Source of the DNA: an uncultured archaeon
Lineage (GTDB): Archaea > Asgardarchaeota > Lokiarchaeia > Sigyniarchaeales > SOKP01
Assembly (NCBI GenBank): GCA_964493715.1
Contig: CAZBPC010000024.1
Location: 1 to 36,980 of the forward strand
Direction: 5' to 3'
Length of the DNA stretch: 36,980 nt
Shown in pieces: positions 2,857-22,323 of this stretch. Under the pieces are notes generated by a model. That model saw nothing but the letters and a program-made list of their open reading frames with translations. It ran no database searches and had not been told where the DNA came from. The translations under genes were made by a program, and so were the position numbers. The stretch's first letter is position 1. Every line of letters starts with the position of its first letter.

Positions 2857-4119
2857 GTGAGTGAAATCGCAAATCCTAAAACCTTTAAAAGCTACATTGC
2901 ATTTTGGTCTGGCCAAATGTTCTCGTTATTAGGTTCTTCAGTGGTCCAATTTGTAATTATATTTTGGATAACAGATATTACCGGAAGTGCAGTATACTTA
3001 TCGATCGCCACTTTTTTTGCTTTCCTTCCACAATGGATATTAGGACCTTTGATTGGAGTTTATGTCGACCGTTGGAATAGAAAATTGATTATAGCATTGG
3101 CTGATTTCTTTCAAGCATTTACTACATTTATCATAATAATGCTTTTTTTTTTCAATGCTGAAACCGTGTGGGCTATCATCATTATCAATAGTATTCGAGG
3201 ACTATGTCAAGCATTTCACTGGCCTGCAACAAATGCAATCATACCTATAATGGTACCTAAGAAACACTTGAGTAGATTAAATGGATTAAACTTTTTTTTC
3301 ACAGGTATGGTTCAAACAATTGGTCCCGTGATCGCCGCAACCTTTTTGACCATTTTTGATATCGAACAAATCCTATGGATAGATGTGATTACCTTTCTAA
3401 TAGCTATTGTCCCATTATTGATTATAAAAATCCCAAATGTAGTGAAAACCGCAATCGATAAAGTTAAAAAACCATTTTTTAAAGATTTAGTAGAGGGCAT
3501 TAAAGTTATAAGAAGTATCCCAGGACTTCTACTTTTATTATATATAGCCACCATGATCAATTTTTTTGGACAACCATTTTCCACATTAATACAATATTTC
3601 GTAATAATCACTCACTATGGAAATAAATTAGATCTAGGGTTTGTAGTAGCTCTTATACAAGGAGGCATGTTTGTAGGGGCTATAATTGTAACAATAAAAA
3701 AAAATTGGAAACATAAGGCTATAATTATCTTTTTAGGTTTAATTCTTGGAGATTTGGGACACCTTATTTTAGCGCTTGCTCCTACTGGACAATTTATTAT
3801 AATCGGAATAGGGGGATTTATTTTTGCCTTTATAGTTCCATTCGTGAACACGATGTTTTTAACAATTTTACAACGAACAATCCCCCCTGATAAGCAAGGA
3901 AGAGTTATGTCAATTGTTATAACAATTGCAACAGCTGTTTCACCGATTGCGATGATAATTTCTGGACCTTTGGCAGTAATAATGGGAATCGTTCCTTTAT
4001 TTGTTAGTGCCGCGTCTATAGATATGACCATTGTTATATTAATATGGATTTTTTCTAATGTTACAAAAATAGATTATGATGAATTAGCGGTCTCAAATCC
4101 AGAAAAAATCAATATTTAA
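2857..4119 (+). CDS. MFS efflux transporter (DHA3/MefA-like)
   Basis: About 12 hydrophobic segments; GQMFSLLGS, GVYVDRWNRK (motif A), QGRVMS. Confidence 0.92.
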   Translation: MSEIANPKTFKSYIAFWSGQMFSLLGSSVVQFVIIFWITDITGSAVYLSIATFFAFLPQWILGPLIGVYVDRWNRKLIIALADFFQAFTTFIIIMLFFFNAETVWAIIIINSIRGLCQAFHWPATNAIIPIMVPKKHLSRLNGLNFFFTGMVQTIGPVIAATFLTIFDIEQILWIDVITFLIAIVPLLIIKIPNVVKTAIDKVKKPFFKDLVEGIKVIRSIPGLLLLLYIATMINFFGQPFSTLIQYFVIITHYGNKLDLGFVVALIQGGMFVGAIIVTIKKNWKHKAIIIFLGLILGDLGHLILALAPTGQFIIIGIGGFIFAFIVPFVNTMFLTILQRTIPPDKQGRVMSIVITIATAVSPIAMIISGPLAVIMGIVPLFVSAASIDMTIVILIWIFSNVTKIDYDELAVSNPEKINI

Positions 4120-4233
4120 AATTCTTCTTATAGAAGTAAAGAATACTAATGTTGTTTTTGAAATGTTAGATTAAGTTTTAATTATTGATTAGATTCTTTT
4201 TATTAAATTCCTTTCCAATAAGAGTTTCTGATT

Positions 4234-5370
4234 ATGTCTAAAGCTGTAATTTTATCAGGGGGTTGGGGCACGCGCCTTCGTCCCTTGACCTGTTCTATTC
4301 CCAAAACATTAATTCCAATATGTAATAAACCTGTAATGGAACGCCAGATCTTACTACTTAAAGCTGCTGGTGTAAGTGAAATTGTACTAGCTGTAAGTAT
4401 AATGGCTGATGTAATTAAAGATTATTTTAAAAATGGCGAAAAACTAGGAATAAAGATCTCTTATACTGATGAAATTTTCCCCGCAGGAACAGCTGGTGCG
4501 ATCAAATTAGCTGAATCTTTTTTAAAAGATGACAATTTTTTTATGCTTAATGGTGATGTCATTTTAAATTTTGATTTTAGCAAGATGCTCCAATTTCATA
4601 ACAAGTTAAGAGCATTTGGGACTATTGCAAGTAAAGTTGTAGAAGATCCATCTCGATACGGCGTGATTATAGCAAATCAAAATACTAAGAAGATTGAGAA
4701 ATTTTTAGAAAAAGAAGAATATAAACCTCCAAAAGGGGGTCCAGTACCAATGCCAATAAACTCAGGAGTATACTTACTTGAACCAGAAATTTTTTCCTAT
4801 ATTGCCTCAAATAAAAAGGTGTCTATTGAAAGAGAAATATTCCCCAAAATCGCTGAAGAACATGAGGTTTATCATTATCCAATTGAAGGGATATGGAAAG
4901 ATATTGGAAAACCTTATGATTTATTGCAAGGAAATATTTCACTAATGAATGATCTGATTCAAAATCTTAAAGAGGTGCATAATAACCTTATTGATTATAG
5001 TGCTCAAATCAATCCATCAACAAAAATTATTCATCCCTGTGTTATTGGAGAACAGACTGTAATTAGGCAAAATTGCATTATTGGTCCAAATGCGATTATT
5101 GGTGATAATGTGTTCATTGATAACAATACCCTGATTAAAAATTCTGTCATCTTCAATGAAACTTACATTTCAAATCATGTAGAATTAGAAAACACAATTA
5201 TATCCGATAATTGTACGATTGGAGATAATGCTCATTTAAAAGGAATCGAAGATAAATTAATTCTCTTATCATCTCATGTCAAAGTAATGAAAAATGTTGA
5301 AATTATTAACTTAGTTAAAGACTATTTTTCAGTATGTCATCATGAAATAGTTAGTGAGAGTGTAAAATAA
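4234..5370 (+). CDS. NDP-sugar pyrophosphorylase (mannose-1-P guanylyltransferase/GCD1 family) with left-handed beta-helix
   Basis: LSGGWGTRLRPLT..PK, GTAGAI, NGD, YGV, WKDIGKP; C-terminal hexapeptide repeats. Confidence 0.92.
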   Translation: MSKAVILSGGWGTRLRPLTCSIPKTLIPICNKPVMERQILLLKAAGVSEIVLAVSIMADVIKDYFKNGEKLGIKISYTDEIFPAGTAGAIKLAESFLKDDNFFMLNGDVILNFDFSKMLQFHNKLRAFGTIASKVVEDPSRYGVIIANQNTKKIEKFLEKEEYKPPKGGPVPMPINSGVYLLEPEIFSYIASNKKVSIEREIFPKIAEEHEVYHYPIEGIWKDIGKPYDLLQGNISLMNDLIQNLKEVHNNLIDYSAQINPSTKIIHPCVIGEQTVIRQNCIIGPNAIIGDNVFIDNNTLIKNSVIFNETYISNHVELENTIISDNCTIGDNAHLKGIEDKLILLSSHVKVMKNVEIINLVKDYFSVCHHEIVSESVK

Positions 5371-5393: not shown

Positions 5394-5795
5394 ATGTCTA
5401 AGATTTTTCTTTTAGAGCTTGATAAGATCCAGCCAAGTCAACTATATTTAAATAAAAATAAACTTAAATCATCACAAACTAAATTTAAATCAAATGACCT
5501 TAAATCATATAAACCTATTCCTATTAAAGAAATAAATCAAAAATATGTAGCTACAGATGGACATCATCGAGCATTTATATTGTGGCAAAGAGGTGAAAAA
5601 CAGGTGCGCGTTGAATGGGAATATGAAGATTTGGATTGGACCCTCTACGAAATATGTGTAAAATGGTGTGAAGAAGAAGGAATATTCAATATTTCTGATC
5701 TCAAAGATAGAATTGTTGATAATGAAGAATATGATGAATTGTGGTTGAATAGATGTAAAAATATGCATGAGCGTATAAATAAAGGGGAAATTTAA
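5394..5795 (+). CDS. Stand-alone ParB/sulfiredoxin-like domain protein
   Basis: IQPSQLYL...PIPIK...ATDGHHRA, the DGHHR motif of the ParB/Srx fold. Confidence 0.75.
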   Translation: MSKIFLLELDKIQPSQLYLNKNKLKSSQTKFKSNDLKSYKPIPIKEINQKYVATDGHHRAFILWQRGEKQVRVEWEYEDLDWTLYEICVKWCEEEGIFNISDLKDRIVDNEEYDELWLNRCKNMHERINKGEI

Positions 5796-5809
5796 AGGAC
5801 TCTAATAAA

Positions 5810-7153
5810 ATGAGGAAAAAAATCACTCCAGATAAGATATGCATTGACTTCAATAATGGACTTATAACAAAAGAAGAATCAATAAATCTCTTAGAATCAA
5901 TCATTAGTGAGAGTGAAAATACTGAAGAAAGAATCAAAGCAATTGAATCAATTGGGCATCTAAACCTTATAACAAGCAGATCATATGAATTACTTGAAAA
6001 AAGTTTAATTTCAGATGAATCTCCTTTAGTTAGAGTATCAGCAGCTCAAATAATGATGCAAAAATTCTCAAAAGTAGAAACTGGTCCTCTTTTTTGGGCA
6101 ATAGAAAATGAAAACTCAATTCTTTTTTTTAAACCTTTACTTGATTTATTTGAGGTAGATACTCAATCTTTCTTAAATGAATTAAAGAATAAAGCTATTA
6201 AGAAGTTAACTCAGATATATAATCTTCAATATCCCGATATGAAATTTATTATCGATGTAGATTATTTGGAAGCCCGTAAGTTTTTGAGTAAACTGCATGA
6301 ATTTATAAAAAAATTTGGTATCAATGAAGATTACAAATTAGCTTTAATAAAAGAAAATACGAGTATTAGCAATAAAGGATTGGCTAGAGTAAATTCTAGT
6401 TTCAATGGTCATATAACAAAACTAACCTTAAAAGAACTAGATCATATCCCCCTCTCAATAAATTCTTTACCAAATCTTAATTCGCTCACTATCGATCATT
6501 GCGTGTTAAAAAATGAACTCATTCATCTACTTAATTTCCCAAATGTTAATCAGTTAACATTCACAAACAATATCATTGATAATTTACCCGATTGGGTCTG
6601 GAAGATCGCAAATAATAAGAATTACCTCGACAAGTTTATCAATATTGGAGTAGCTCTTACAGAAGCACCAAAATTAGCATTAATCGAGATATTGTCGGGC
6701 ATATCATTAGATTTAATTAAGAAAGATGAAAAACCTCGCTTAAAAATAGCTTATTGCTACAAAATTGATGAGGTGGGTCATATTATAGGACTTTATATTG
6801 CAAATGATATGATCAAGATTGGTTTAATTCCTCATCAAATATGTGATTTAAAATATCTCGGAGAACTATACTTAATTAGACAAGATATTACCCAAATTCC
6901 TAAATGTGTTAATAAGTTAACCAATTTGAAAATTTTGAATTTATCCTTTAACCAAATCGAAATAATTCCTGAGGATATCGTATTTTTAAAGAATCTTGAA
7001 TATTTTAATTTACAAAATGATGGCAATAACGTAATTAAAATTATTCCTAAATCAATTACTCTTCTTTGTAATTTAAAAGCATTTAATCTTTCAGGAAATA
7101 TCATTGAGAACGTACCTGAGAGTTTAAAAAGTTTTAAGCCATTGAAACTATAA
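5810..7153 (+). CDS. HEAT-repeat + leucine-rich-repeat protein (Lokiarchaeia-expanded type)
   Basis: N-terminal HEAT-like segments (ERIKAIESIG, SDESPLVRVSAA); C-terminal LxxLxLxxNxIxxIP repeats. Confidence 0.85.
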   Translation: MRKKITPDKICIDFNNGLITKEESINLLESIISESENTEERIKAIESIGHLNLITSRSYELLEKSLISDESPLVRVSAAQIMMQKFSKVETGPLFWAIENENSILFFKPLLDLFEVDTQSFLNELKNKAIKKLTQIYNLQYPDMKFIIDVDYLEARKFLSKLHEFIKKFGINEDYKLALIKENTSISNKGLARVNSSFNGHITKLTLKELDHIPLSINSLPNLNSLTIDHCVLKNELIHLLNFPNVNQLTFTNNIIDNLPDWVWKIANNKNYLDKFINIGVALTEAPKLALIEILSGISLDLIKKDEKPRLKIAYCYKIDEVGHIIGLYIANDMIKIGLIPHQICDLKYLGELYLIRQDITQIPKCVNKLTNLKILNLSFNQIEIIPEDIVFLKNLEYFNLQNDGNNVIKIIPKSITLLCNLKAFNLSGNIIENVPESLKSFKPLKL

Positions 7154-7249: not shown

Positions 7250-9220
7250 ATGTCAAAAAGACAAAATAACTTAGATGATTTATTAGGTCCCAAACAGAAT
7301 AAATCAAGTGAAACAAAAGAAAAACAATTAGAAAACCAAATAATTAAGGATAAAATTAATTCCCTTGTTCAAGAAATAAAAAGACATAGAGCTTTATATT
7401 ATAATGAGACACCAGAAATTACCGATGCAAAATATGATGAATTAGAAGAAGAATTAAGAACACTTGATCCTAATAATCCCATTTTATTTACTGTGGGAGC
7501 AGATTCTTCTGCAATATTTACTAAAAAGGAACACGTGATTCCGATGGGTTCACAGGATAAAGTTACAACTCCCCCGGAATTCAGAAAATGGGCAGAAGAT
7601 CGTGGCAATAAAACATTTTTAATTCAGTTTAAACTTGATGGGATAAGTATTGAGCTTCAATATAAGAGTGGAGTTTTTCAATGTGCAGTCACTCGAGGCA
7701 ACGGAATCGTAGGAGATGACGTATCAATTAACATAATGAAAATGAAAGGTTTTATCCCAAGATTATCCACAAGATTTTCAGGGGGAATTCGAGCTGAGGT
7801 ATTACTTTTTCATGATCTTTTCGAGAAAAAATATAAGGATATGCAAAATTGTAGGAATACTGCTGCGGGTTTAGTTCGACGTAAAGATGGAATAGGATGT
7901 GAAGATCTTAATTTAATATTTTATGATGCGACTAGTTTGACGGAAGATGTAAGTTTTACAAGCGAGATACAGAAATTAAAATGGATGAAAAGTGAAAATT
8001 TACCTACAATTAAAACTAAAATTGTTAAATCTATACAGGAAGTAATTGACATACGAGAAGACGTAATGAATAACATTCGTGATTCATTAGATTATGACAT
8101 TGACGGGCTAGTAATAAAAGGTAAAGAAATTGATCTTGAAGATATGAAACGTGCTAAACCAATGAAACAGATAGCATTCAAATTTCAAGCAGAAGAAATC
8201 GAAAGTACTTTGATTAGCGTTGAATGGACCATTAGCGGTCACAATTATACCCCTGTTGCTATTATTGAACCTGTTCGATTGATGGGTACTACAGTAAGTA
8301 GAGCTAGCTTAGCTAATCCTAATCTCATAAAAGACATGGGTCTTAAAATTGGTGCAGAAGTAATTGTATCTAAACGAGGAGACATAATTCCTAAAATTGA
8401 ACGAGTTGTGAAAATTCCTCAAGATGCAAAGGATATAATTATTCCCGTCATATGTGAGGAATGCAATACTGAGTTAACAAACGAAGGGACGCGTTTATTC
8501 TGTCCTAATGAAGTATGCCCCAAAAGAAATTATCAGAGATTAGTAAGATGGATTCATGTTCTTGGTGTCAAACATTTCAGTGAGAAGCTGATGTTATATC
8601 CCCTTTTTAAAACGGGTAAAGTGGAACAAATTGCTGACTTATATCACCTAAATGTATCAGATTTAACCCAATTTGAAGGTGTTAAAGAAATTTCTGCTAA
8701 AAAGGCGTTAGATAACTTATTCGCCGTAAAAGAAATATCCTTAGCAAAATTCATTGGGGGTTTTAATATAGAAAATATAGCTGAATTACTCGTAAAGAAA
8801 GTTATTGATGCGGGATATGATACACTTGAAAAAATTAAAAGCGCGAAAATGGAACAATTATCAATGATAGATGGATATGCTGAAATAACTGCTGAAAATC
8901 TCTTGAAAGGGATCAATAAATTATATCCACAAATGCTTGAAGTACTGGATACCAATAAAATTTCTATAGTCAAATCTGAACAAGATGGAAAGTTAAATGG
9001 TTTAACCTTCTGTTTCACGGGCAAACTCGACGAAATTACACGTTCCGAAGCAGAGGATATTGTTTTAAAATATGGTGGAGAGCCAAAAAAAAGCGTAATA
9101 ACGAATCTAAGTTATTTAGTCACCAATGAAACCACACCTACTGCCAAGTATTTAAAAGCTCAAGAACAAGGCACAAAAATTATTACAGAAAATGAATTCC
9201 TCAAAATGATCTTAGACTAA
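7250..9220 (+). CDS. ligA: NAD+-dependent DNA ligase (bacterial type)
   Basis: Domain Ia YY..TPEITDAKYD, KLDG adenylation motif, TRGNG..GDDVS, NCRNTAAG, DGLVIK, IAFKF, OB-fold RGDIIPKI, C4 zinc finger (CEEC...CPNEVC), HhH repeats, BRCT (FCFTGKL...R). Confidence 0.96.
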   Translation: MSKRQNNLDDLLGPKQNKSSETKEKQLENQIIKDKINSLVQEIKRHRALYYNETPEITDAKYDELEEELRTLDPNNPILFTVGADSSAIFTKKEHVIPMGSQDKVTTPPEFRKWAEDRGNKTFLIQFKLDGISIELQYKSGVFQCAVTRGNGIVGDDVSINIMKMKGFIPRLSTRFSGGIRAEVLLFHDLFEKKYKDMQNCRNTAAGLVRRKDGIGCEDLNLIFYDATSLTEDVSFTSEIQKLKWMKSENLPTIKTKIVKSIQEVIDIREDVMNNIRDSLDYDIDGLVIKGKEIDLEDMKRAKPMKQIAFKFQAEEIESTLISVEWTISGHNYTPVAIIEPVRLMGTTVSRASLANPNLIKDMGLKIGAEVIVSKRGDIIPKIERVVKIPQDAKDIIIPVICEECNTELTNEGTRLFCPNEVCPKRNYQRLVRWIHVLGVKHFSEKLMLYPLFKTGKVEQIADLYHLNVSDLTQFEGVKEISAKKALDNLFAVKEISLAKFIGGFNIENIAELLVKKVIDAGYDTLEKIKSAKMEQLSMIDGYAEITAENLLKGINKLYPQMLEVLDTNKISIVKSEQDGKLNGLTFCFTGKLDEITRSEAEDIVLKYGGEPKKSVITNLSYLVTNETTPTAKYLKAQEQGTKIITENEFLKMILD

Positions 9221-10449: not shown

Positions 10450-10696
10450 AATTTGATGGAATCTGTAAAGAATTATAACTATTTCTATACTAAAATATAA
10501 TTTCATTTCTAATGTGAGATTTTTCCCTTAAATTTTATTGAAATTATTAATAAAGTAGCAAAAAGCAAAAGAGATTAGACTTAAATTCCAAATAAAATTA
10601 TTCAAGTCCAAAAGTGTTACTTTTGTATTCAGAATATTTTAATTAAAAAAGTGTAGATTTGACTTGTTAGATTATATAATCAATGATAAATGGATA

Positions 10697-12145
10697 ATGG
10701 ACAGAATTTCTTCTCAAAGTTCAAGTTTTAGTAATTGGATGACCGAATTATTTAAAACAGTTGAAAATGTTATTGATGGGATAGATACATCTCTAATGGG
10801 GCATAATGAACTTAAGAATACTGAAGATGAAATTACTCAAGCTAAAATTCAGTTAGCAGATGCAAAGAAAAAATTATCTAATTTAGATAATGGATCATTT
10901 GGAGCTAAAATTGCAGGAAAAACTGCAAAATGGGTTACAAAACGTCTTGAAAAAGAAATGCAACAATCTAAACCGGAATTAGAAGAAATAGGAGCTGATT
11001 TTGACCTTGATTTAGATTTTATAACGGGTAAAAAAAGAACTTTATCTTCTGCGTTGTTCGATGTTTCTAAAGAGAGAGGAATTGATAACAAAGGATTGCT
11101 ATATTTGATAAAATCATTACCAGACCTCGAAGCGTTTTTATATAGTACAAGCGTACAAAAATATTATAGGGATCATACGGAACATACACTTAGAGTCTCA
11201 GTTTTGGGGGATTTTCTATTAGAGCAAGATATAGGACAAGGAAAAATGTCAGGGATCATCTCTGAATTATTAGAAGTCGATGAAAAGCAATTGAAAGAAA
11301 AAATATGGTGGATCACGAGTTTATTACATGACATTGGATACCCATTGGGAAAGATGTCAACAGCAGTTAATTTTTCATTACTAAATCAACTTCTGAGATG
11401 TTATCCCTCATTAGATTTAGATTTTGTTCCATTTGAAATAAATTTATCTTGGAAATCAAACCAAGAAGAGTATCTAAATATTATTGAAGAAGGTCTTTCT
11501 AAGGAAGCTAAGACTCTGATAAGAAAAGGATCAGGAATTCTCAATCCTGTATTGAAATCTCAATTACCAAATACTTATTTACAACAAATTTCTGGACACC
11601 CAGAATATCAATTTACTCCAACTTTCAATTTGGATCATGGGGTTCTTTCAGCACTATCTTTACTGAAGGGTCTTGGTACTCCCGAAGAAATCAGATCGAA
11701 TGATGAATACCAAGGCTATATCTTTGCTGCAAAATCAATGGCTTTGCATAATTTTAAGGAAAGATTACCAGATCATAATTTTGACATTCAACCGCTAACT
11801 TTTTTTCTGATGTTGATTGATGAACTCCAAGAATGGGGGCGCCCTATACCTGTTCAAGTTAGGGACACGTACTTTACCATGGAATTAAAAAAAATTTCTC
11901 TCTTAGATGAAATATCATTGCATCTTGACGATTTTTCTTGGTTAATGCAATTTAAAAACGAGCAAGCCAAAAATCTCATGAATTTTGATTTCCAATTATT
12001 TTCCAAAGAAAAACAAAACTCGTTTGGTAGATTAGATAGAGGTTCTAAATTTTCCAAGACCCTAATTAATCTTCAGAACATAGTACCCTCTAAAAAGAAA
12101 AAAGTAAGTGAACATATCTTAGGCGAAGTAAAAATCGAAATTTAA
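10697..12145 (+). CDS. HD-domain metal-dependent phosphohydrolase with N-terminal coiled coil
   Basis: RDHTEHTLRV, LLHDIGYP, DHGVLSA, ALHN, IDELQEWGRP. Likely start ATG 10697 (track: TTG 10664). Confidence 0.8.
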   Translation: MDRISSQSSSFSNWMTELFKTVENVIDGIDTSLMGHNELKNTEDEITQAKIQLADAKKKLSNLDNGSFGAKIAGKTAKWVTKRLEKEMQQSKPELEEIGADFDLDLDFITGKKRTLSSALFDVSKERGIDNKGLLYLIKSLPDLEAFLYSTSVQKYYRDHTEHTLRVSVLGDFLLEQDIGQGKMSGIISELLEVDEKQLKEKIWWITSLLHDIGYPLGKMSTAVNFSLLNQLLRCYPSLDLDFVPFEINLSWKSNQEEYLNIIEEGLSKEAKTLIRKGSGILNPVLKSQLPNTYLQQISGHPEYQFTPTFNLDHGVLSALSLLKGLGTPEEIRSNDEYQGYIFAAKSMALHNFKERLPDHNFDIQPLTFFLMLIDELQEWGRPIPVQVRDTYFTMELKKISLLDEISLHLDDFSWLMQFKNEQAKNLMNFDFQLFSKEKQNSFGRLDRGSKFSKTLINLQNIVPSKKKKVSEHILGEVKIEI

Positions 12146-13254: not shown

Positions 13255-14226
13255 TTGATTCTTTCTTTGGATACTAAATCTGTTCATAAACTTGCAGAGC
13301 AATATGGATATCTACCTTATATGATTGAAAGGTACTTTCAATTCTTAGGGGAAGAGCAAACAAAACAACTATTAGAAGCAAATGAAAAACCATTAACTCC
13401 TTCAATCAGAGTTAACACGCTTAAAATTAGCAAGGATACTTTAAAAGAAAAACTGGAAAGCAAAGGGTTAAAGTTAGAACTAATTGATTGGATATATGAC
13501 GGGTTTAAAGTTAGGAAATCTCGCTTAAATTTAGGTTCAACTCATGAATATCTTCAAGGATTTTATTATATTCAGAGTGTTGCTCCAATGTTACCTGCAT
13601 TAATTCTCAACCCAAATCCAAGTGATTTAGTGATTGATATGTGTGCAGCTCCTGGGGGGAAAGCCACACACCTAGCTCAAATCATGAACAATAGGGGAAA
13701 TTTAGTATTAATAGAAAGAAATAGACACAGAATACCCGCTTTAGAAATTAACCTTCGAAGAATGGGTATTTATAATTCGATAGTTATTAATGATGATTCA
13801 GTGAATCTATCAAAGTTGAAATTGAAAGCTGATAAGATATTATTGGATGCACCTTGCACTGGAGAGGGATTAATCAGGCAAGATCCTAGTAGAAAGAGAA
13901 GTAAAACTATGAAAGATATCGAAAAATTAAGTACTGTTCAAAAAAAGTTATTAAAAGCTGGTTTGAGCTCATTAAATCCCGGAGGACAACTTTTATATTG
14001 CACGTGTTCAATTGCACCAGAAGAAAATGAATTAGTTATAGATGATGTGCTAAAAGATGAATTAGAATTTATTGTTATTAAGTTACCAAAAAAATATGGC
14101 GTAGATGGAATAATAGAAGTTTATAATAAAATGCTTAGGGAAGATATAAAGTATTCTCAGAGATTGTATCCGCATACCAATGATACGATTGGGTTTTTCG
14201 TATGTTTAATTCAGCGGAATATATAA
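13255..14226 (+). CDS. NOL1/NOP2/Sun family RNA cytosine-C5 methyltransferase
   Basis: IRVNTLK, G.YYIQ, DMCAAPGGKATH, LLDAPCTGEG, YCTCSIAPEENE, GFFVC. Confidence 0.95.
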   Translation: MILSLDTKSVHKLAEQYGYLPYMIERYFQFLGEEQTKQLLEANEKPLTPSIRVNTLKISKDTLKEKLESKGLKLELIDWIYDGFKVRKSRLNLGSTHEYLQGFYYIQSVAPMLPALILNPNPSDLVIDMCAAPGGKATHLAQIMNNRGNLVLIERNRHRIPALEINLRRMGIYNSIVINDDSVNLSKLKLKADKILLDAPCTGEGLIRQDPSRKRSKTMKDIEKLSTVQKKLLKAGLSSLNPGGQLLYCTCSIAPEENELVIDDVLKDELEFIVIKLPKKYGVDGIIEVYNKMLREDIKYSQRLYPHTNDTIGFFVCLIQRNI

Positions 14227-14405
14227 TATAAATTCATTAAGTTTTGTAGAAATTTGGTCCTAATTTGTTTATATAACACTATTTCTTAATAATCATGAAT
14301 TAATTCTTTTATGCAATAGGTAAGAGAAAAGAGTGAAATCCAATGTTTTCTGCAATAAAGATTTAATTCAAATTTTTCTTTCAATCCAATTTCATCTGAT
14401 AAGAA

Positions 14406-15365
14406 ATGATGCTCCAGAGTGAAATAGCTTTTTATTTGTTAAGGTTCTATCTTTATACTAATATTAATAATTTTGCAGAAGGGGATAGTTTTAAGGAGCT
14501 AATTAAAGTTGAAATTTTAAAAGCTTCGTTTGAGACCTTTACAAGAATTATAGAAACCTATCCTGAATTGAAACAAGAATTTAAAGATAATGCATATATT
14601 AATGAAGAATTTGAAATTTGGACTAAGTTTAATAAATACTGGGACATCATGAAAGAAAAAATTATCGCACACCCCTTAAGTTTAGATAATCCGAACGTAC
14701 AACATATAATTGCCATAGCGGAAGATATGATGAATCAGAATAAGACTCTCAATGTAGAAAGATTATATAACGTTTCAAAAAAAGTCTTAAAGATACCCCG
14801 AAATGGTCTAATTTCAATCATTAATTTTTTAATCAATAATCACGTGTTACTTGAAGGCTCAAAATTTTCAAGAGAAACGGTACTTGAGAATTATTTAAGG
14901 AAAAACATCTTAGAGTATATACAACTCAATGGATGTGCACACTTTTCAATTTTAAGAAAAGAAGTATTATCCGAGCGAGATGGAAATCAAAAAAGCTCTG
15001 GGCAGCTAGTATGGCATTTAGAAATGTTAATGAAATTTAATTATATAAAAAAAATAAAAATAGGAAATTATTCGGTTTTCATACCATATAAGGAAGATGA
15101 GAGAAGCGCAAAAGTCCTTTTTCTGGTAAAGGATCGAATAAATAGGGAAATCTTTAGCCTATTAAGGGAACTTGGACAAATTAAAAAAGCAGATATGTTT
15201 AAAGAGATTGACGAACGAAGAGATTATGTGAATTATCGAATCAACAATCTTATCAACCAGAATTTGTTAAAATACGACCCAGTATCCAAAGAATTATCTT
15301 TGTCTCAAAAAGATAAGAAAAAAGTCGATGAGGCAATAAATAGAGAATTGAGGAGGATGAAATAA
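14406..15365 (+). CDS. Multi-winged-helix putative transcriptional regulator
   Basis: Tandem wHTH-like segments: EGSKFSRETVLENYLRKNILEYI...HFSILRK...GQLVWHLEML...IKKIKIGNYSVF and INREIFSLL...VNYRINNL. Start codon uncertain. Confidence 0.72.
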   Translation: MMLQSEIAFYLLRFYLYTNINNFAEGDSFKELIKVEILKASFETFTRIIETYPELKQEFKDNAYINEEFEIWTKFNKYWDIMKEKIIAHPLSLDNPNVQHIIAIAEDMMNQNKTLNVERLYNVSKKVLKIPRNGLISIINFLINNHVLLEGSKFSRETVLENYLRKNILEYIQLNGCAHFSILRKEVLSERDGNQKSSGQLVWHLEMLMKFNYIKKIKIGNYSVFIPYKEDERSAKVLFLVKDRINREIFSLLRELGQIKKADMFKEIDERRDYVNYRINNLINQNLLKYDPVSKELSLSQKDKKKVDEAINRELRRMK

Positions 15366-16669
15366 TGGTTCTTAATATAAATCCTGAGGATATGTGTGAT
15401 CTAATAACGGGGTTAGTCATTATTATAACAGCTATATTGACATATACTGTCCCAAAAACGAAAAAAATAGTTTCTTTACGATATTTAAGATTGGGGATCA
15501 TTTCGATGGGAGTTTTTATGCTATTAGAAGCGATTAGTCCTCTATTCTTAATTGAATCTCTTTCGGTAGTTTCAGGATTTTTTGTTGTTTTAGCGGCAAT
15601 ATTTATAGTTATGGGAGTAAATTATACCCTTAAAGAGTCTTATATGTCATTAGGATTATTAATTGTTATCGCTGCATCATCAGTATTGATATACTTAGCC
15701 TTTCAACCTGGAATAGTGAATATAGTTAATAGTGATGGCTATGTGACTATAAGATGGCAAGGCCTTTTTTCTCTAATAGGGGATGGTCTCGTATTATATA
15801 TCGAAGGTTATGTCTTCTACTGGGGTATAAAAACATGGTTAAATGCACCATTTTTAATTAAAAAAGAAGCTACTATCTTTTTTCTGGGGATAATCGTTTT
15901 CTCCCCTGTAGTAGTTATTTTCTATCTACTTTATTATATCAATGGTTTAATGCTTATAATTGCAGATATATTTTCAATTATCGGTTTTGTCATTTTAATT
16001 ATCGCTATAGAGAGAGAACCAAAATTATTACATATATTACCATTTAAAATATTTCGAATACTAGTCAAAGATCGTCATGGCTTTCCACTTTTCGATTATG
16101 ATTGGTCAGAATCCAAAATTGCCGAAAATATATTTACTGGCTTTATCAATGCGGTGCAATTGATGAGTGAAGAAGTCATGACCATTGGTGGATTATTAGA
16201 TATTAATTTACAAAAGGGGATATTGATAGTCCATGAATCAGATAATGTAACTGTAGGTTTGGTCTCTTCCAAATCATCAAAATTGTTAAGAGATTCAGTA
16301 CTGAAATTTACGCGAGATTTTGAGTCTAAATTTAAAAAACAATTGGAAAATTCCCTTACTGATATGGAGAAATATGAAACCGCAAGTGAATTGATTGAGA
16401 AATATTTTTCAAACTTTCCTTCTCATGTTATTTTTAGTAGAAAACAGCCTCTTCTATTATCCAGTAAATTTATGAAACGAGTAGGAGAATTTGATAATAA
16501 ACTAAAAAAAATGTTCCCTGATGAGAAAGAATATGAAAATATAAGAAACGAAATAGAGAAATCCCCAATTGGTTTAGTACCCGGTTTTTTTTCTCTGTAT
16601 GACGAGTTAGAAGACGAAATTGATAAAATCGAAGATAAAAAAATTAATCAACTTGATCTAAAAGACTAA
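15365..16669 (+). CDS. Seven-TM membrane protein with C-terminal longin/roadblock-like cytoplasmic domain
   Basis: Seven hydrophobic helices in aa ~10-215 with a beta-hairpin-like loop between TM4 and TM5, then IFRILVKDRHGFPLFDYDW...IFTGFINAVQLMSEEV...ILIVHESDNVTVGLVS...LRDSVLKFTRDFESKF (longin-like pattern). ATG overlaps the upstream stop (TAATG). Confidence 0.7.
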   Translation: MVLNINPEDMCDLITGLVIIITAILTYTVPKTKKIVSLRYLRLGIISMGVFMLLEAISPLFLIESLSVVSGFFVVLAAIFIVMGVNYTLKESYMSLGLLIVIAASSVLIYLAFQPGIVNIVNSDGYVTIRWQGLFSLIGDGLVLYIEGYVFYWGIKTWLNAPFLIKKEATIFFLGIIVFSPVVVIFYLLYYINGLMLIIADIFSIIGFVILIIAIEREPKLLHILPFKIFRILVKDRHGFPLFDYDWSESKIAENIFTGFINAVQLMSEEVMTIGGLLDINLQKGILIVHESDNVTVGLVSSKSSKLLRDSVLKFTRDFESKFKKQLENSLTDMEKYETASELIEKYFSNFPSHVIFSRKQPLLLSSKFMKRVGEFDNKLKKMFPDEKEYENIRNEIEKSPIGLVPGFFSLYDELEDEIDKIEDKKINQLDLKD

Positions 16670-16686: not shown

Positions 16687-17259
16687 TCATTGTTTTCTTC
16701 TTAAATAATATCCTTTATCAATTAAATTAGTTGCTACTAAATCTCCTTGATTGAGTAATTTATAATTAGAAGGATCATTTTCCAAACGAGCAAGAGCTAT
16801 AAGCTCTCTTGATTCATTTAAAACTAGCAGTATTGCACTTTTTTGAAAATCTGACGGAAAATTAGAAATCATCCTTTTTGTTATCGGATTTCCATATAGT
16901 ATTGCTTTCTCCCCTTCATTTGTTACTTTTAAAATATTGTGTTCTGGAATGATATTTTCCTTTAGAAAGAACTCTGCTCCTTCTAAGCTTAAAAAAAATG
17001 TATTTCTTGATATAAAACCTAAATATAATCCCGTTGATGTAATCTTTACGTTAATTTGAAAGCTAAGGATTAACTCTCGTAGCCTTTCAAAAATTAAATA
17101 AACTAGATGCCTATTCTCATTTTCAGGAATTAATATGTATAATGAAAAATTCTTTTTTTCTATAAATGGAGCAATACTTGGTGAAATTTGATTTAAAGCA
17201 GCAAGAATAATTTTAATTTCAGTTTCATTTAGAAGTCTAAAATTTTTAAAGGCTCTCAT
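16687..17259 (-). CDS. nip7: Ribosome biogenesis protein Nip7-like (PUA domain)
   Basis: STGLYLG...FFLSLEGA...EGEKAILYGNPI...VLNE...IAL...LIDKGYYLR. Likely start ATG 17259 (MRAFKNFR). Confidence 0.85.
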   Translation of the reverse strand: MRAFKNFRLLNETEIKIILAALNQISPSIAPFIEKKNFSLYILIPENENRHLVYLIFERLRELILSFQINVKITSTGLYLGFISRNTFFLSLEGAEFFLKENIIPEHNILKVTNEGEKAILYGNPITKRMISNFPSDFQKSAILLVLNESRELIALARLENDPSNYKLLNQGDLVATNLIDKGYYLRRKQ

Positions 17260-17418
17260 TCTTAACTGCAATAAAAAGAAATAAGTAGTTTTATTATCAC
17301 TAATCAATAAAGCTTTTAAAAAATATTTTTTTAATTTTGTCATAAAAATTACAAAACCCTAATAAAACATAAATAAATAGTCTTGAAGGAGATAAATCAA
17401 AAAGGAGAGATCATTGAT

Positions 17419-20269: not shown

Positions 20270-20482
20270 GACTAAAAACCTTTACTTTTAAGATATTTAT
20301 TTCTATTAAGATATTCTTAGTATTTATACGTAATCTAGAACAATCTTTAAATCTAATTTAATCTGTGGAAATATTTCAAATTTTCTCTTTAAACATCATT
20401 CATAAGAATTGGTCTACAAAAAATTATATAACCTTGAATTTTCTTATAATATATATAAAAATACCAAAATTTAGTGATTACG

Positions 20483-21109
20483 ATAGGATTTTTAAAGGAT
20501 ATGAGTAAATGGCTTAGCGGAGGTAAGAAACCAGATTCAATTCGATCCGCAACAGTCAAATTGAAAGTTTTTAATAAGCGACTGATGAGACAGACCAAAA
20601 AGATGGAAATGACATCCAAATTAGCAAGGGATAAAGCCGTACAACTACGAAAACAGGGAGATATGCAAGGTTCAGAATTCCACGCGCGAAATCACCTTCA
20701 GATAAAAAAACAAGCTCGTGCAATCGATCATTTCCGTACTAATCTTGAAGGAATGGTCTTTAAATTAGAACAAGCTAATGCTATAAAAGATGTGTCAGAT
20801 GTCATGCATGGAATTGCCCAGAGTTTAGGGATGTTGAAAAATCAGCTATCTATTCCTGAACTTACAGAATTAATGACTCAAATTGGCATCGATATGGAAG
20901 ATTTCAGCGTAACTGAAGAAATTACCTCTGATGGGATTGGAGATATGATGGTAGACACAGCAGTCACTGATTCTCAAGTAAAAGATGTTTTAGGCGAGAT
21001 TGATGCAGAGATACAAGTTGAAATTGGTGGAGCGTTACCTACTGTTGAACCAGATGGAAAAATAAAAGAACTAGAAGATGAGTTAAATAAATTAAAATCC
21101 AGAGATTAA
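20483..21109 (+). CDS. ESCRT-III Snf7-fold protein, CHMP1-3 (Vps2/24/46) group
   Basis: LKVFNKRL...GDMQGSEFHARNHL...KLEQA helical hairpin; amphipathic N-terminus (GFLKDMSKWL); C-terminal MIM1-like ELEDELNKLK. Start probably ATA 20483 (alternatives GTG 20474, ATG 20501). Confidence 0.9.
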   Translation: MGFLKDMSKWLSGGKKPDSIRSATVKLKVFNKRLMRQTKKMEMTSKLARDKAVQLRKQGDMQGSEFHARNHLQIKKQARAIDHFRTNLEGMVFKLEQANAIKDVSDVMHGIAQSLGMLKNQLSIPELTELMTQIGIDMEDFSVTEEITSDGIGDMMVDTAVTDSQVKDVLGEIDAEIQVEIGGALPTVEPDGKIKELEDELNKLKSRD

Positions 21110-21303
21110 CTAGGCTTCATCTTGATCGTATATTAAGGTTCTATTTCTTCTAACTTTTTAATTTAATAATTTTAAATATAAACTCATTCAAGTACAAATA
21201 AAATAATTCAAAAACTAAGTTTTTTCTTCTTAGCAAAATTATTTAAGATAAAATGCCATTCTTATCTTAATTTCTAATTAATTTATTCCAAATGAATTTA
21301 ATT

Positions 21304-22323
21304 ATGAGTATAAAAAAAAAAGTTATTTCAATTGGAAGTAATACTCTCGATGCGCTTATTCAAGTAAAAGACATTCTACGATTTGAGTTATTTGATAAAG
21401 AAATCGTTAAAAAATACACTGCTATTGAATATAGTCGGAAATTAAACGTCGAAGAAATTAGATTTTATCCAGGAGGTTCAGGTGCTAATATCGCTTCGAA
21501 TTGTGCACAGTTGGGATTTAATGCTATTTATTTAGGAGTAGTTGGAAAAGACTTCTCTGCTGAGATATGTATAAATGATCTCAAAAGAAGGGGTGTTGAT
21601 TTGTCACATTTAATACAAACTGATGAGGATTCTACAGCTTTTTCAGTCATCTTAAAAACAGAGTGGGGTAAAGATAGAAGCATTCTTGCTTATAAAGGTG
21701 CTAATAATTTGCTTAAACCAGAAGATATTAAAGAAGAACTTTTTAAGGATATTAGTGCTTTAGCATGGACTTCATTAACTTCTGAAAGTGGTTGTCAAGC
21801 AATTGAAAAAGCTATTACACTTACTAAAAAAAACGGTGGCTTGGTTTTTGCTGCTCCGAGCATGTCAATTATAAAAAATAATCCCAACTGGGCTAAAATT
21901 TTAATTACAAATTCAGATGTCGTATCAATGAATACTGAAGAAGCAGAAGAGTTCACCAAAGAATCAGATAGATATCTTGCTACTAAAAAAATGTTTGATT
22001 TGGGACCTAAATTGGTTTCTATTACAGATGGTGCAAAAGGCTCTATATTAACAGATGGAAAAAAAGTTGTTAGAAGCGGTATATATCAAGTTAGTGTAAT
22101 GGATACTACTGGAGCAGGAGACGCATTTCTAAGTGGGCTATTAATCTCTAAATTAAACAACTATCCACTTGATAAAATGACCCAACTCGCAACAGCAATG
22201 TCCTCCTTTGAATCTATGAAAACAGGTGTCCGAGAAGGAACAGCAACTAGTCTCCAAGAACTCGAAAAATTTATTGTATCCCACGAATTACAGCAAACTG
22301 TTTCCGAATTCACTCAATTCTAA
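21304..22323 (+). CDS. PfkB/ribokinase family carbohydrate kinase
   Basis: GGSGANIA, GVVGKD, NTEEA, ITDGAKGS, DTTGAGDAF. Start ATG 21304 or 21292. Confidence 0.93.
   Translation: MSIKKKVISIGSNTLDALIQVKDILRFELFDKEIVKKYTAIEYSRKLNVEEIRFYPGGSGANIASNCAQLGFNAIYLGVVGKDFSAEICINDLKRRGVDLSHLIQTDEDSTAFSVILKTEWGKDRSILAYKGANNLLKPEDIKEELFKDISALAWTSLTSESGCQAIEKAITLTKKNGGLVFAAPSMSIIKNNPNWAKILITNSDVVSMNTEEAEEFTKESDRYLATKKMFDLGPKLVSITDGAKGSILTDGKKVVRSGIYQVSVMDTTGAGDAFLSGLLISKLNNYPLDKMTQLATAMSSFESMKTGVREGTATSLQELEKFIVSHELQQTVSEFTQF

Follow-up and report, generated by a model that had tools for sequence, protein, structure and literature searches.

Within a 36,980-nucleotide (nt) stretch of DNA from an uncultured archaeon of the Lokiarchaeia (contig CAZBPC010000024.1; this whole stretch is hereafter the window), we describe a pair of adjacent genes encoding a winged helix-turn-helix (wHTH) protein and a seven-transmembrane (7TM) protein with a longin-like cytoplasmic domain. 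The pair may constitute a two-gene signal-transduction module of Lokiarchaeia-type (Promethearchaeota) Asgard archaea, in which a membrane sensor controls its cognate winged-helix regulator by contact; we give this proposal an even chance of being correct.

Both open reading frames (ORFs) lie on the + strand, the wHTH gene at 14406..15365 (319 residues) and the 7TM gene at 15365..16669 (434 residues). A preliminary description of this DNA had noted that the stop codon of the first gene overlaps the start codon of the second in the motif TAATG (15363..15367, +), and the ORF coordinates bear this out: TAA occupies 15363-15365, ATG occupies 15365-15367, and base 15365 is common to both. A Shine-Dalgarno-like GAGGAGG, read from the sequence at 15350..15356 (+), lies within the end of the wHTH gene, 8 nt ahead of the 7TM ATG. 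The one-base overlap is not conserved, and the intergenic gap in relatives is 0–90 nt. The gene pair is not a chance find, as both proteins have hundreds of homologues. For the 7TM protein, a word-indexed search returned 411 homologues, mostly from Promethearchaeota or Lokiarchaeota and "hypothetical" wherever named, and an exhaustive search gave 565 clusters at 50% identity, almost entirely from Promethearchaeota; for the wHTH protein, 153 homologues were found.

The 7TM protein was modelled with AlphaFold2 on a 65-row family alignment (mean predicted local distance difference test score, pLDDT, 87.4; predicted template-modelling score, pTM, 0.80). Its seven transmembrane helices, spanning residues 7-217 (15383..16015, +), are predicted at residues 7-27, 36-61, 64-90, 96-112, 133-160, 163-189, and 195-217. 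Hydropathy of the window protein alone gave six strong segments and one weaker segment (133-155), and the family-averaged hydrophobic cores of the 65 members fell at residues 12-24, 43-57, 71-82, 100-108, 139-151, 174-193, and 195-212. Over the same 65 members, lysine plus arginine reached 3.25, 3.42, and 3.25 per sequence in loops 30-42, 156-168, and 216-235, and only 0.02–0.8 per sequence in stretches 1-10, 64-66, 114-132, and 191-194; this clustering of positive charge in the three loops, read by the positive-inside rule, indicates an N-terminus outside and a C-terminus inside. Between the fourth and fifth transmembrane helices (TM4 and TM5), the model contains a predicted extracellular β-hairpin (residues 118-131; 15716..15757, +) formed by strands 118-123 and 126-131, in a loop that carries 0.79 lysine plus arginine per sequence. 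The preliminary description had read the same anatomy from the letters alone, namely seven helices, an extracellular-type hairpin between TM4 and TM5, and an internal C-terminus, and both AlphaFold2 and the 65-member hydropathy agree with it. Its statement that kinase, cyclase, and receiver domains are absent is matched by the domain scans, which returned no Pfam family at E ≤ 0.1 and no NCBIfam family at E ≤ 1.

When the 65-row alignment was run as a profile against every PDB sequence, the best match was an unrelated protein (E 0.24), and Foldseek against the PDB with the whole 434-residue model gave no match at E ≤ 0.001. The best Foldseek rows for the helical bundle were bundles of G protein-coupled receptors (GPCRs): mGlu5 (7fd8_A, E 5.3e-3, template-modelling score, TM-score, 0.37 by query) and ADGRG2 (7xke_R, TM-score 0.55 by target, root-mean-square deviation, rmsd, 5.7), with 10–17% identity across the GPCR rows. 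Neither the Pfam scan nor the PDB profile search gave a GPCR sequence match. The protein has the seven transmembrane helices and the N-out/C-in orientation by which GPCRs are recognized, according to both hydropathy and the AlphaFold2 model; judged from the structural comparison, the resemblance is no more than would be expected of seven-helix bundles sharing a topology.

Behind the bundle, residues 229-348 (16049..16408, +) are predicted to form a cytoplasmic α/β domain, where conservation within the family is highest. AlphaFold2 places strands at 229-236 and 241-246, a helix at 254-272, strands at 277-282, 285-291, and 295-301, and helices at 306-328 and 334-348, with pLDDT mostly 73–96. This ββ-α-βββ-α-α order is the longin order, and both order and extent agree with the longin-like domain that had been proposed at 16046-16415 (residues 228-351). 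Searched as part of the whole 434-residue query, the domain matched AP-2 sigma (6owo_S, TM-score 0.57 by target, rmsd 4.1, E 0.015), sedlin (2j3w_A, TM-score 0.60 by target, rmsd 4.0, E 0.017), and COPZ1 (5mc7_A, TM-score 0.49 by target, E 0.010); two dynein LC7/roadblock chains also appeared, with only 82–83 columns covered. We regard a longin-like fold as supported by the predicted topology and by the ranking of the structural matches. Longin family membership is not supported by sequence comparison: longin-type Pfam models such as Longin, Sedlin_N, Sybindin, and Clat_adaptor_s gave no match to the window protein at E ≤ 0.1 and none among the 65 members at E ≤ 0.01. Of the double label "longin/roadblock" first attached to this domain, the longin half holds by element order and the roadblock half is not supported, as the domain begins with two strands after the TM7 linker, lacks an N-terminal helix before them, and has no PF03259/Robl_LC7 match.

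In the family alignment, 26 of the 33 columns conserved at ≥70% fall in residues 218-354; this conservation, set against the variable membrane part, fits a constant transmitter behind a variable sensor. The domain is followed by a disordered stretch (residues 355-366, pLDDT < 50) and a C-terminal helical tail (residues 367-433; 16463..16663, +) with AlphaFold2 helices at 367-375, 377-383, 387-399, and 404-433. The tail had been described as acidic and helical: it is helical, and its acidity is mild overall (15 lysine plus arginine versus 18 aspartate plus glutamate in residues 355-434) and clear only in the last 35 residues (4 versus 10, isoelectric point, pI, 4.16). It is absent from relatives of about 355 residues and from those fused to histidine kinases, many relatives match only query residues 1-353, and tail occupancy in the 65-row alignment is 44%.

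The partner protein (pI 9.18; 14406..15365, +) was predicted by AlphaFold2 with a pLDDT of 82.4 and contains three winged-helix units, which specifies the "multi-wHTH" label it had first been given: WH1 at residues ~88-157 (14667-14876, +), WH2 at ~158-229 (14877-15092, +), and WH3 at ~230-301 (15093-15308, +), followed by a basic C-terminal helix (residues 302-319). Each unit runs helix-helix-helix-strand-strand with a core pLDDT of about 87–94, and the core is basic (unit pI 8.3–9.5). At E ≤ 0.01, the Pfam model PF24266 (HTH_HVO_0163_N) recognized 31 members of the family out of 36 (best 1.7e-8), HTH_24 recognized 14, and HTH_20 recognized 6; many homologues carry precomputed PF24266 labels, and the Joint Genome Institute names some of them "predicted transcriptional regulator". 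Single-domain Foldseek rows include SrnR, MecI (1sax_A, 1okr_B, E 0.06–0.07), and RosR.

Ahead of the core lies an acidic N-terminal helical extension (residues 1-81, pI 4.64; 14406..14648, +) with predicted helices at 2-18, 28-39, 42-58, and 63-87. The conserved core begins near M82, and many homologues of 235–246 residues start at the equivalent methionine and have no extension. In 11 related loci (L005, L011, L012, L016, L017, L020, L023, L026, L031, L052, and L055), an upstream ORF or frame of its own encodes the extension, which may be a third component, one that has been fused in the lineage of the window.

By sequence, the strongest clue to function comes from relatives fused to histidine kinases. 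In P0305 and P0381, HisKA and HATPase_c follow a homologous 7TM plus α/β module, and the kinase-fused relatives align to window residues 48-383 with 31% identity (E 2e-36). A search with the 7TM plus α/β module found 28 such clusters, 27 with HisKA and HATPase_c and 1 with HisKA only, and the source names among them include "sensor histidine kinase". Its fusion ahead of HisKA/HATPase_c marks the module as a signal-input module, with the α/β domain apparently in the transmitter position. The sensor role suggested in the preliminary description gains support from these 28 clusters. Homology to sensors of the HisKA_7TM type (PF16927), the kind it had invoked, was not shown: the window protein has no PF16927 match, and matches among relatives stay below threshold (E 4.9e-4 in 1 of 65 members; E 1.8e-3 in 1 of 10, P0327, at 18.6 bits versus a 28.6-bit cut-off), so that a remote relationship at most is possible.

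A second kind of fusion joins homologues of the two window proteins to each other. In P0242 (676 residues), a 7TM bundle, α/β domain, and tail are followed by a wHTH core that is 42% identical to the window protein over wHTH residues 91-290 (E 1e-39).

The pairing was examined in 59 related loci, drawn from a scan of one genome per species with a closer alignment, a procedure that biases the set toward close, tail-bearing relatives. Nearly all come from metagenome-assembled genomes (MAGs) of Promethearchaeota, with one each labelled Thorarchaeota, Hermodarchaeota, and Thermoplasmatota. In 54 of these 59 loci, the matched 7TM gene is preceded on its own strand by a wHTH homologue that ends 0–90 nt upstream. 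The five exceptions are a wHTH-7TM-7TM array (L022), a reversed order (L044), a 7TM gene without wHTH (L014), a locus at a contig end (L045), and a partial match (L051). Nop2 or Nip7 lies in the flanks of 37 loci (both in 26) and neither in the other 22, and several MAGs carry two to four loci (four from one MAG), with two tandem pairs in L048. Given the 22 loci away from this site and the multiple copies per MAG, the pair is therefore an autonomous, repeatedly copied unit; one copy is fixed beside the ESCRT (endosomal sorting complex required for transport) genes. Linkage to a cognate wHTH gene, an idea of the preliminary description, is borne out by this count, including the loci off the Nop2/Nip7 site.

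Several arrangements in relatives deserve separate record. Tandem copies occur at L001:5616-6323, L022:2438-3736 and 4001-5293, L030:3926-5242 and 5535-6836, and L048:1014-5308; either the 7TM gene alone is repeated (wHTH-7TM-7TM) or the whole pair (wHTH-7TM-wHTH-7TM). NCBI locus tags ACTSP9_07270/07275/07280 also show the wHTH-7TM-7TM arrangement. On the contig of L027, a wHTH-less 7TM copy (L014:4004-5326) follows Snf7 and PfkB on the other side of the ESCRT locus. The window has Snf7 at 20474..21109 and then PfkB at 21292..22323, and, unlike the L014 genome, no 7TM copy after them. In L051, the locus labelled Thermoplasmatota, a partial 7TM match (query residues 182-426) is followed by Nip7; it looks like a mis-binned Promethearchaeota contig and not a true occurrence outside Asgard archaea.

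The two proteins also diverge together. Over 55 pairs, the Mantel correlation between their pairwise distances was 0.851, a value reached by 0 of 2000 permutations; shared ancestry inflates such a figure, although the set also takes in within-genome paralogues. The three nearest neighbours overlap in 45 of the 55. In context-labelled trees (33 versus 22 rows), we counted six changes for the 7TM protein and three for the wHTH protein, as description only.

Contact between the two proteins was assessed by complex prediction for the cytoplasmic part of the 7TM protein (residues 216-434) and the wHTH protein. The complex score was 0.56 (the middle value of three runs at 0.62, 0.56, and 0.48), none of three controls scored above 0.00, at least 70% of contacts are common to the runs, and partner pLDDT is at least 68. 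Of 80 solved complexes, 58 reach the mark for this score, as do 2 of 110 mismatched pairs; these counts hold only roughly here, since our own alignments were used. Set beside the synteny and the fusion, the prediction lends modest support to contact with the wHTH protein; as a check on the pairing raised in the preliminary description, it counts as weak support.

A conserved non-coding element travels with the pair. The promoter-like sequence TTTTGTAGAAATTTGGTCCTAATTTGTTTATATAA (14242..14276, +) ends in the TATA-like TTTATATA (14268-14275) and is present once in the window. We searched 491,856 bases of the 59 related loci, and three shuffles of them, for this 35-nt element with up to 8 mismatches: 43 copies were found in 37 of the loci, all at module borders, with none elsewhere and none in the shuffles. 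Thirty-two copies lie within 500 nt downstream of the 7TM gene, 9 upstream of the wHTH gene, and 2 divergently upstream (examples are L012:5393-5427 and L003:2927 and 5391); in most loci the element after the 7TM gene faces the 3' end of Nip7. About 65 nt after the element, a second conserved non-coding block, GGTAAGAGAAAAGAGTGAAATCC (14319..14341, +), matches GGGAGAAT..G(C/T)GAAATCC in relatives. Over 168 nt, the 179-nt spacer ahead of the wHTH gene shares 88.7% identity with its counterpart in L054, with flanking coding DNA at 77–83%, and several AT-rich inverted-repeat pairs lie upstream of the wHTH gene. The element is a candidate promoter for the module, possibly with an operator; the operator role is a guess.

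An RNA gene or riboswitch after the element was also considered and found no support. Rfam gave no matches on 14150-14450 (E ≤ 1) or on 15 loci (gathering thresholds), the predicted fold of 14285-14410 was not significant (z −0.58), and folding 16 copies of the sequence behind the element to a consensus gave three pairs and no covariation. A search of 29 loci for a small ORF after the element found none in common; at two of them, the ORFs there are long and unrelated.

From these observations, we infer the following course of events. The divergent seven-helix bundle, with its N-terminus and hairpin outside and its C-terminus inside, would take up a membrane or external cue. The cue would cross the conserved cytoplasmic face, made up of the TM5-TM6 loop and the P219...LPF linker, to the longin-ordered transmitter domain. 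In one branch of the family, the transmitter would drive a fused histidine kinase; in the branch of the window, the output would be the separate basic triple winged-helix protein, co-transcribed and here translationally coupled. The cytoplasmic domain, the acidic tail, or both may hold the winged-helix protein at the membrane or release it, and so set the amount available for DNA binding. Once freed, the winged-helix protein would bind DNA, probably at the conserved border element (candidate target TTTGTAGAAATTTGGTCCTAAT) and possibly at other sites.

Several observations weigh against this proposal. Only 7 of the 33 columns conserved at ≥70% fall in the membrane part (residues 1-217); given this weak sequence conservation, the 7TM part could be an anchor and not a sensor. 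The fusion of 7TM and wHTH is one cluster among the 150 listed, and in L048 the 7TM gene and the next wHTH gene share a reading frame, so a lost or misread stop could yield a P0242-like fusion. A permanently fused form, moreover, argues against obligatory release. The complex score of 0.56 lies in a band in which passes are often wrong: only 7 of the 80 solved complexes, and both of the passing mismatches, reach the mark with a score of ≤0.60. The window wHTH protein itself matches PF24266 at E 0.015 and 15.8 bits, below the 31-bit cut-off, and, like the 7TM protein, it attains no Pfam or NCBIfam cut-off. The element is not palindromic, and the 32 copies after the 7TM gene have no conserved ORF behind them.

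An unlikely alternative, and the one that survives best, is local regulation without contact: the wHTH protein would be a conventional transcription factor for the adjacent gene, and the 7TM protein a transporter, enzyme, or structural protein. Regulator genes commonly sit beside membrane-protein genes, as is general knowledge, and the weakly conserved transmembrane part, the promoter-like element conserved upstream of the operon, and the weakness of the complex score are all consistent with this arrangement. What speaks for signalling by contact instead is that 28 clusters fuse the same module to a histidine kinase, marking it as signal input, that one relative fuses it to the wHTH core, that the complex controls stayed at 0.00 against 0.56, and that the most conserved part is a cytoplasmic α/β domain without a catalytic family match.

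It is decidedly unlikely that the two proteins form an ESCRT-related adaptor pair, with the wHTH protein as a non-DNA-binding ESCRT-II-like scaffold and the 7TM-longin protein as its receptor or cargo. The idea has a structural basis: the top Foldseek row for the winged-helix model is human VPS22 of ESCRT-II (3cuq_A, E 2.8e-4), VPS36 chains are also present, and N-terminal helices followed by tandem winged helices are a similar architecture. It has a positional basis as well, with 37 of the 59 loci beside Nop2/Nip7, adjoining the EAP30 and Vps25 genes. The VPS22/VPS36 matches, however, have TM-scores of 0.19–0.38 (fold-level 0.19–0.25 for VPS22) and rmsd values of 11–17 Å, and other tandem winged-helix proteins (UFL1/DDRGK1, SelB, STK19, and RPC34) score like the ESCRT-II chains. 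An ESCRT-II paralogue was weakened further as a candidate when hhalign of the wHTH profile against the EAP30 protein of the window returned a probability of 0.1%, and no EAP30 or ESCRT-II Pfam match was found for the window wHTH protein or 36 family members. Three winged helices in place of two, matches to DNA-binding HTH models, and a basic core also point elsewhere, and 22 of the 59 loci lie at other places in the genome with unrelated neighbours. Apart from position, nothing was found to favour the suggestion that the 7TM protein is ESCRT cargo, and copies of the module also lie elsewhere than at the ESCRT locus.

Improbable, too, is a role in small-GTPase control, in which the longin-like domain would bind or regulate a small GTPase in the role of guanine nucleotide exchange factor or GTPase-activating protein, the 7TM part would be GPCR-like, and the wHTH protein would be a downstream or parallel output. 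The longin element order and the top structural matches to sigma-adaptin, zeta-COP, sedlin, and dynein LC7/roadblock favour it. Longin/roadblock dimers serve as platforms for GTPases, and small GTPases are numerous in Lokiarchaeal genomes, according to PMC10933270 and PMC4917890; in actinobacterial conservons, a membrane sensor kinase is combined with a roadblock protein and a Ras-like GTPase, according to PMC13343842 and PMC13621833. The small-GTPase link proposed in the preliminary description found no support in the window, where no GTPase or Roadblock gene was found among the 36 ORFs scanned. In the 100 ORFs neighbouring the 22 off-site pairs, Ras-family genes occurred in two loci (L036 and L040, on the same strand as the pair only in L040) and Robl_LC7 in one (L058, directly upstream of the wHTH gene), frequencies no higher than expected in GTPase-rich genomes; other neighbour ORFs of the off-site pairs encode unrelated enzymes and transporters. 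Against GTPase control also stand the lack of any Pfam longin or Roadblock sequence match and the position of the domain in kinase-fused relatives, where PAS/GAF-type transmitters sit. In strain MK-D1, according to PMC10933270, small GTPase genes generally lie outside the operons of roadblock/longin regulators, and for this reason missing linkage counts only weakly against a GTPase link.

Most improbable is an archaeal receptor that would combine both roles, its seven-helix sensor with a membrane-anchored longin platform that, on a signal, recruits or switches one of the many Asgard small GTPases and hands over an ESCRT-II-type winged-helix adaptor, and that would be a prokaryotic precursor of signalling from receptor to GTPase or of receptor sorting, located at the ESCRT locus; it owes its slight chance to the longin-like fold, the VPS22 match, the 37 ESCRT-side loci, and the published statement that GTPase regulators of these archaea are not operon-linked.

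The surroundings of the pair in the window agree with the position first described, between Nop2 and Nip7 beside the ESCRT locus. By Pfam scan, the flanking genes encode an RsmB/F (Nop2-type) methyltransferase (13255..14226) and Nip7 (16687..17343, −), and further neighbours are EAP30 (Vps22/36-like), ESCRT-II/Vps25, Vps4, and Snf7. Farther away, for a 493-residue ORF at 10664-12145 (+), upstream of a CYTH gene, the Pfam matches are no more than marginal (HD domain, E 0.09). A 447-residue leucine-rich-repeat (LRR) protein with a weak HEAT match is encoded at 5810-7153 (+), beside the gene for an NAD-dependent DNA ligase (7250..9220). LRR proteins form one of the families that have expanded in these archaea.

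The work defines a large family that has no Pfam or NCBIfam match at cut-off and no functional name in the searches made. Its input architecture, a 7TM bundle with a membrane-anchored longin-ordered domain, appears to be new, and its outputs would be either a fused histidine kinase or a triple winged-helix partner. A literature search found no description of a 7TM-longin protein or a wHTH-7TM pair; the source list of Lokiarchaeal longin-like domains, which may include the family, and the supplements lay outside that search. Forerunners of eukaryotic membrane biology are sought in Asgard archaea, whose signalling has been little studied. Here, a fold of the longin type appears to serve signal transmission and not trafficking, and this bears on how "eukaryotic signature" domains in Asgard genomes are read. 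Were the GTPase or the ESCRT interpretation true, the module would be far more important.

Among known systems, the prokaryotic arrangement that comes nearest in uniting a sensor, a GTPase, and a roadblock-type domain is the actinobacterial conservon (CvnA sensor kinase, CvnB roadblock protein, CvnC, and CvnD GTPase), which shares with the module a membrane sensor and a domain of the roadblock superfamily. The module differs in that no Ras-like GTPase is present in the window or most related loci, the α/β domain is fused to the sensor, and the partner is a triple winged-helix protein without a DUF742 match. ESCRT-II (Vps22/Vps36/Vps25) shares N-terminal helices and tandem winged helices with the wHTH protein, whose gene adjoins ESCRT-II genes in the window, whereas this partner has three winged helices, DNA-binding-type HTH matches, and no EAP30 profile similarity. 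Asgard genomes are reported to be rich in longin-like domains, with 41 in Lokiarchaeum (PMC4917890 and PMC10933270), and PMC10933270, in which the word "transmembrane" has 0 occurrences, does not mention a transmembrane-anchored longin. The trafficking longins sigma-adaptin, zeta-COP, and sedlin/TRAPPC2 have the same element order (TM-scores 0.49–0.60 by target, rmsd 4.0–6.6 Å); the domain of the module, in contrast, is fused to the C-terminal end of a 7TM bundle, has no Pfam longin or solved-structure sequence match, and has no GTPase or SNARE link among the results obtained here.

The closer likenesses are functional. Sensor histidine kinases of the 7TM type (HisKA_7TM, PF16927) likewise place a seven-helix input N-terminal to an output, and 28 clusters of relatives are such kinases; the window protein, by comparison, lacks HisKA/HATPase_c, its output would be a separate winged-helix protein, and a longin-ordered domain lies between. 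In BlaR1/MecR1 with BlaI/MecI, and in PtsG with Mlc, a membrane protein governs a cognate repressor, either one whose gene lies next to its own or one that it sequesters. They resemble the module as pairs of a membrane sensor and a winged-helix regulator, and MecI is among the weak Foldseek rows. Unlike BlaR1/MecR1 and PtsG, the module has no Pfam match to a protease, penicillin-binding domain, or transporter and belongs to an archaeal lineage, and unlike BlaI/MecI and Mlc, its regulator has three winged helices and an N-terminal helical extension. By analogy, the module would work most like the 7TM-input sensor kinases and the repressor-controlling membrane sensors, being a member of neither group by the tests made; it is best regarded at present as a new kind of one-and-a-half-component sensor system.

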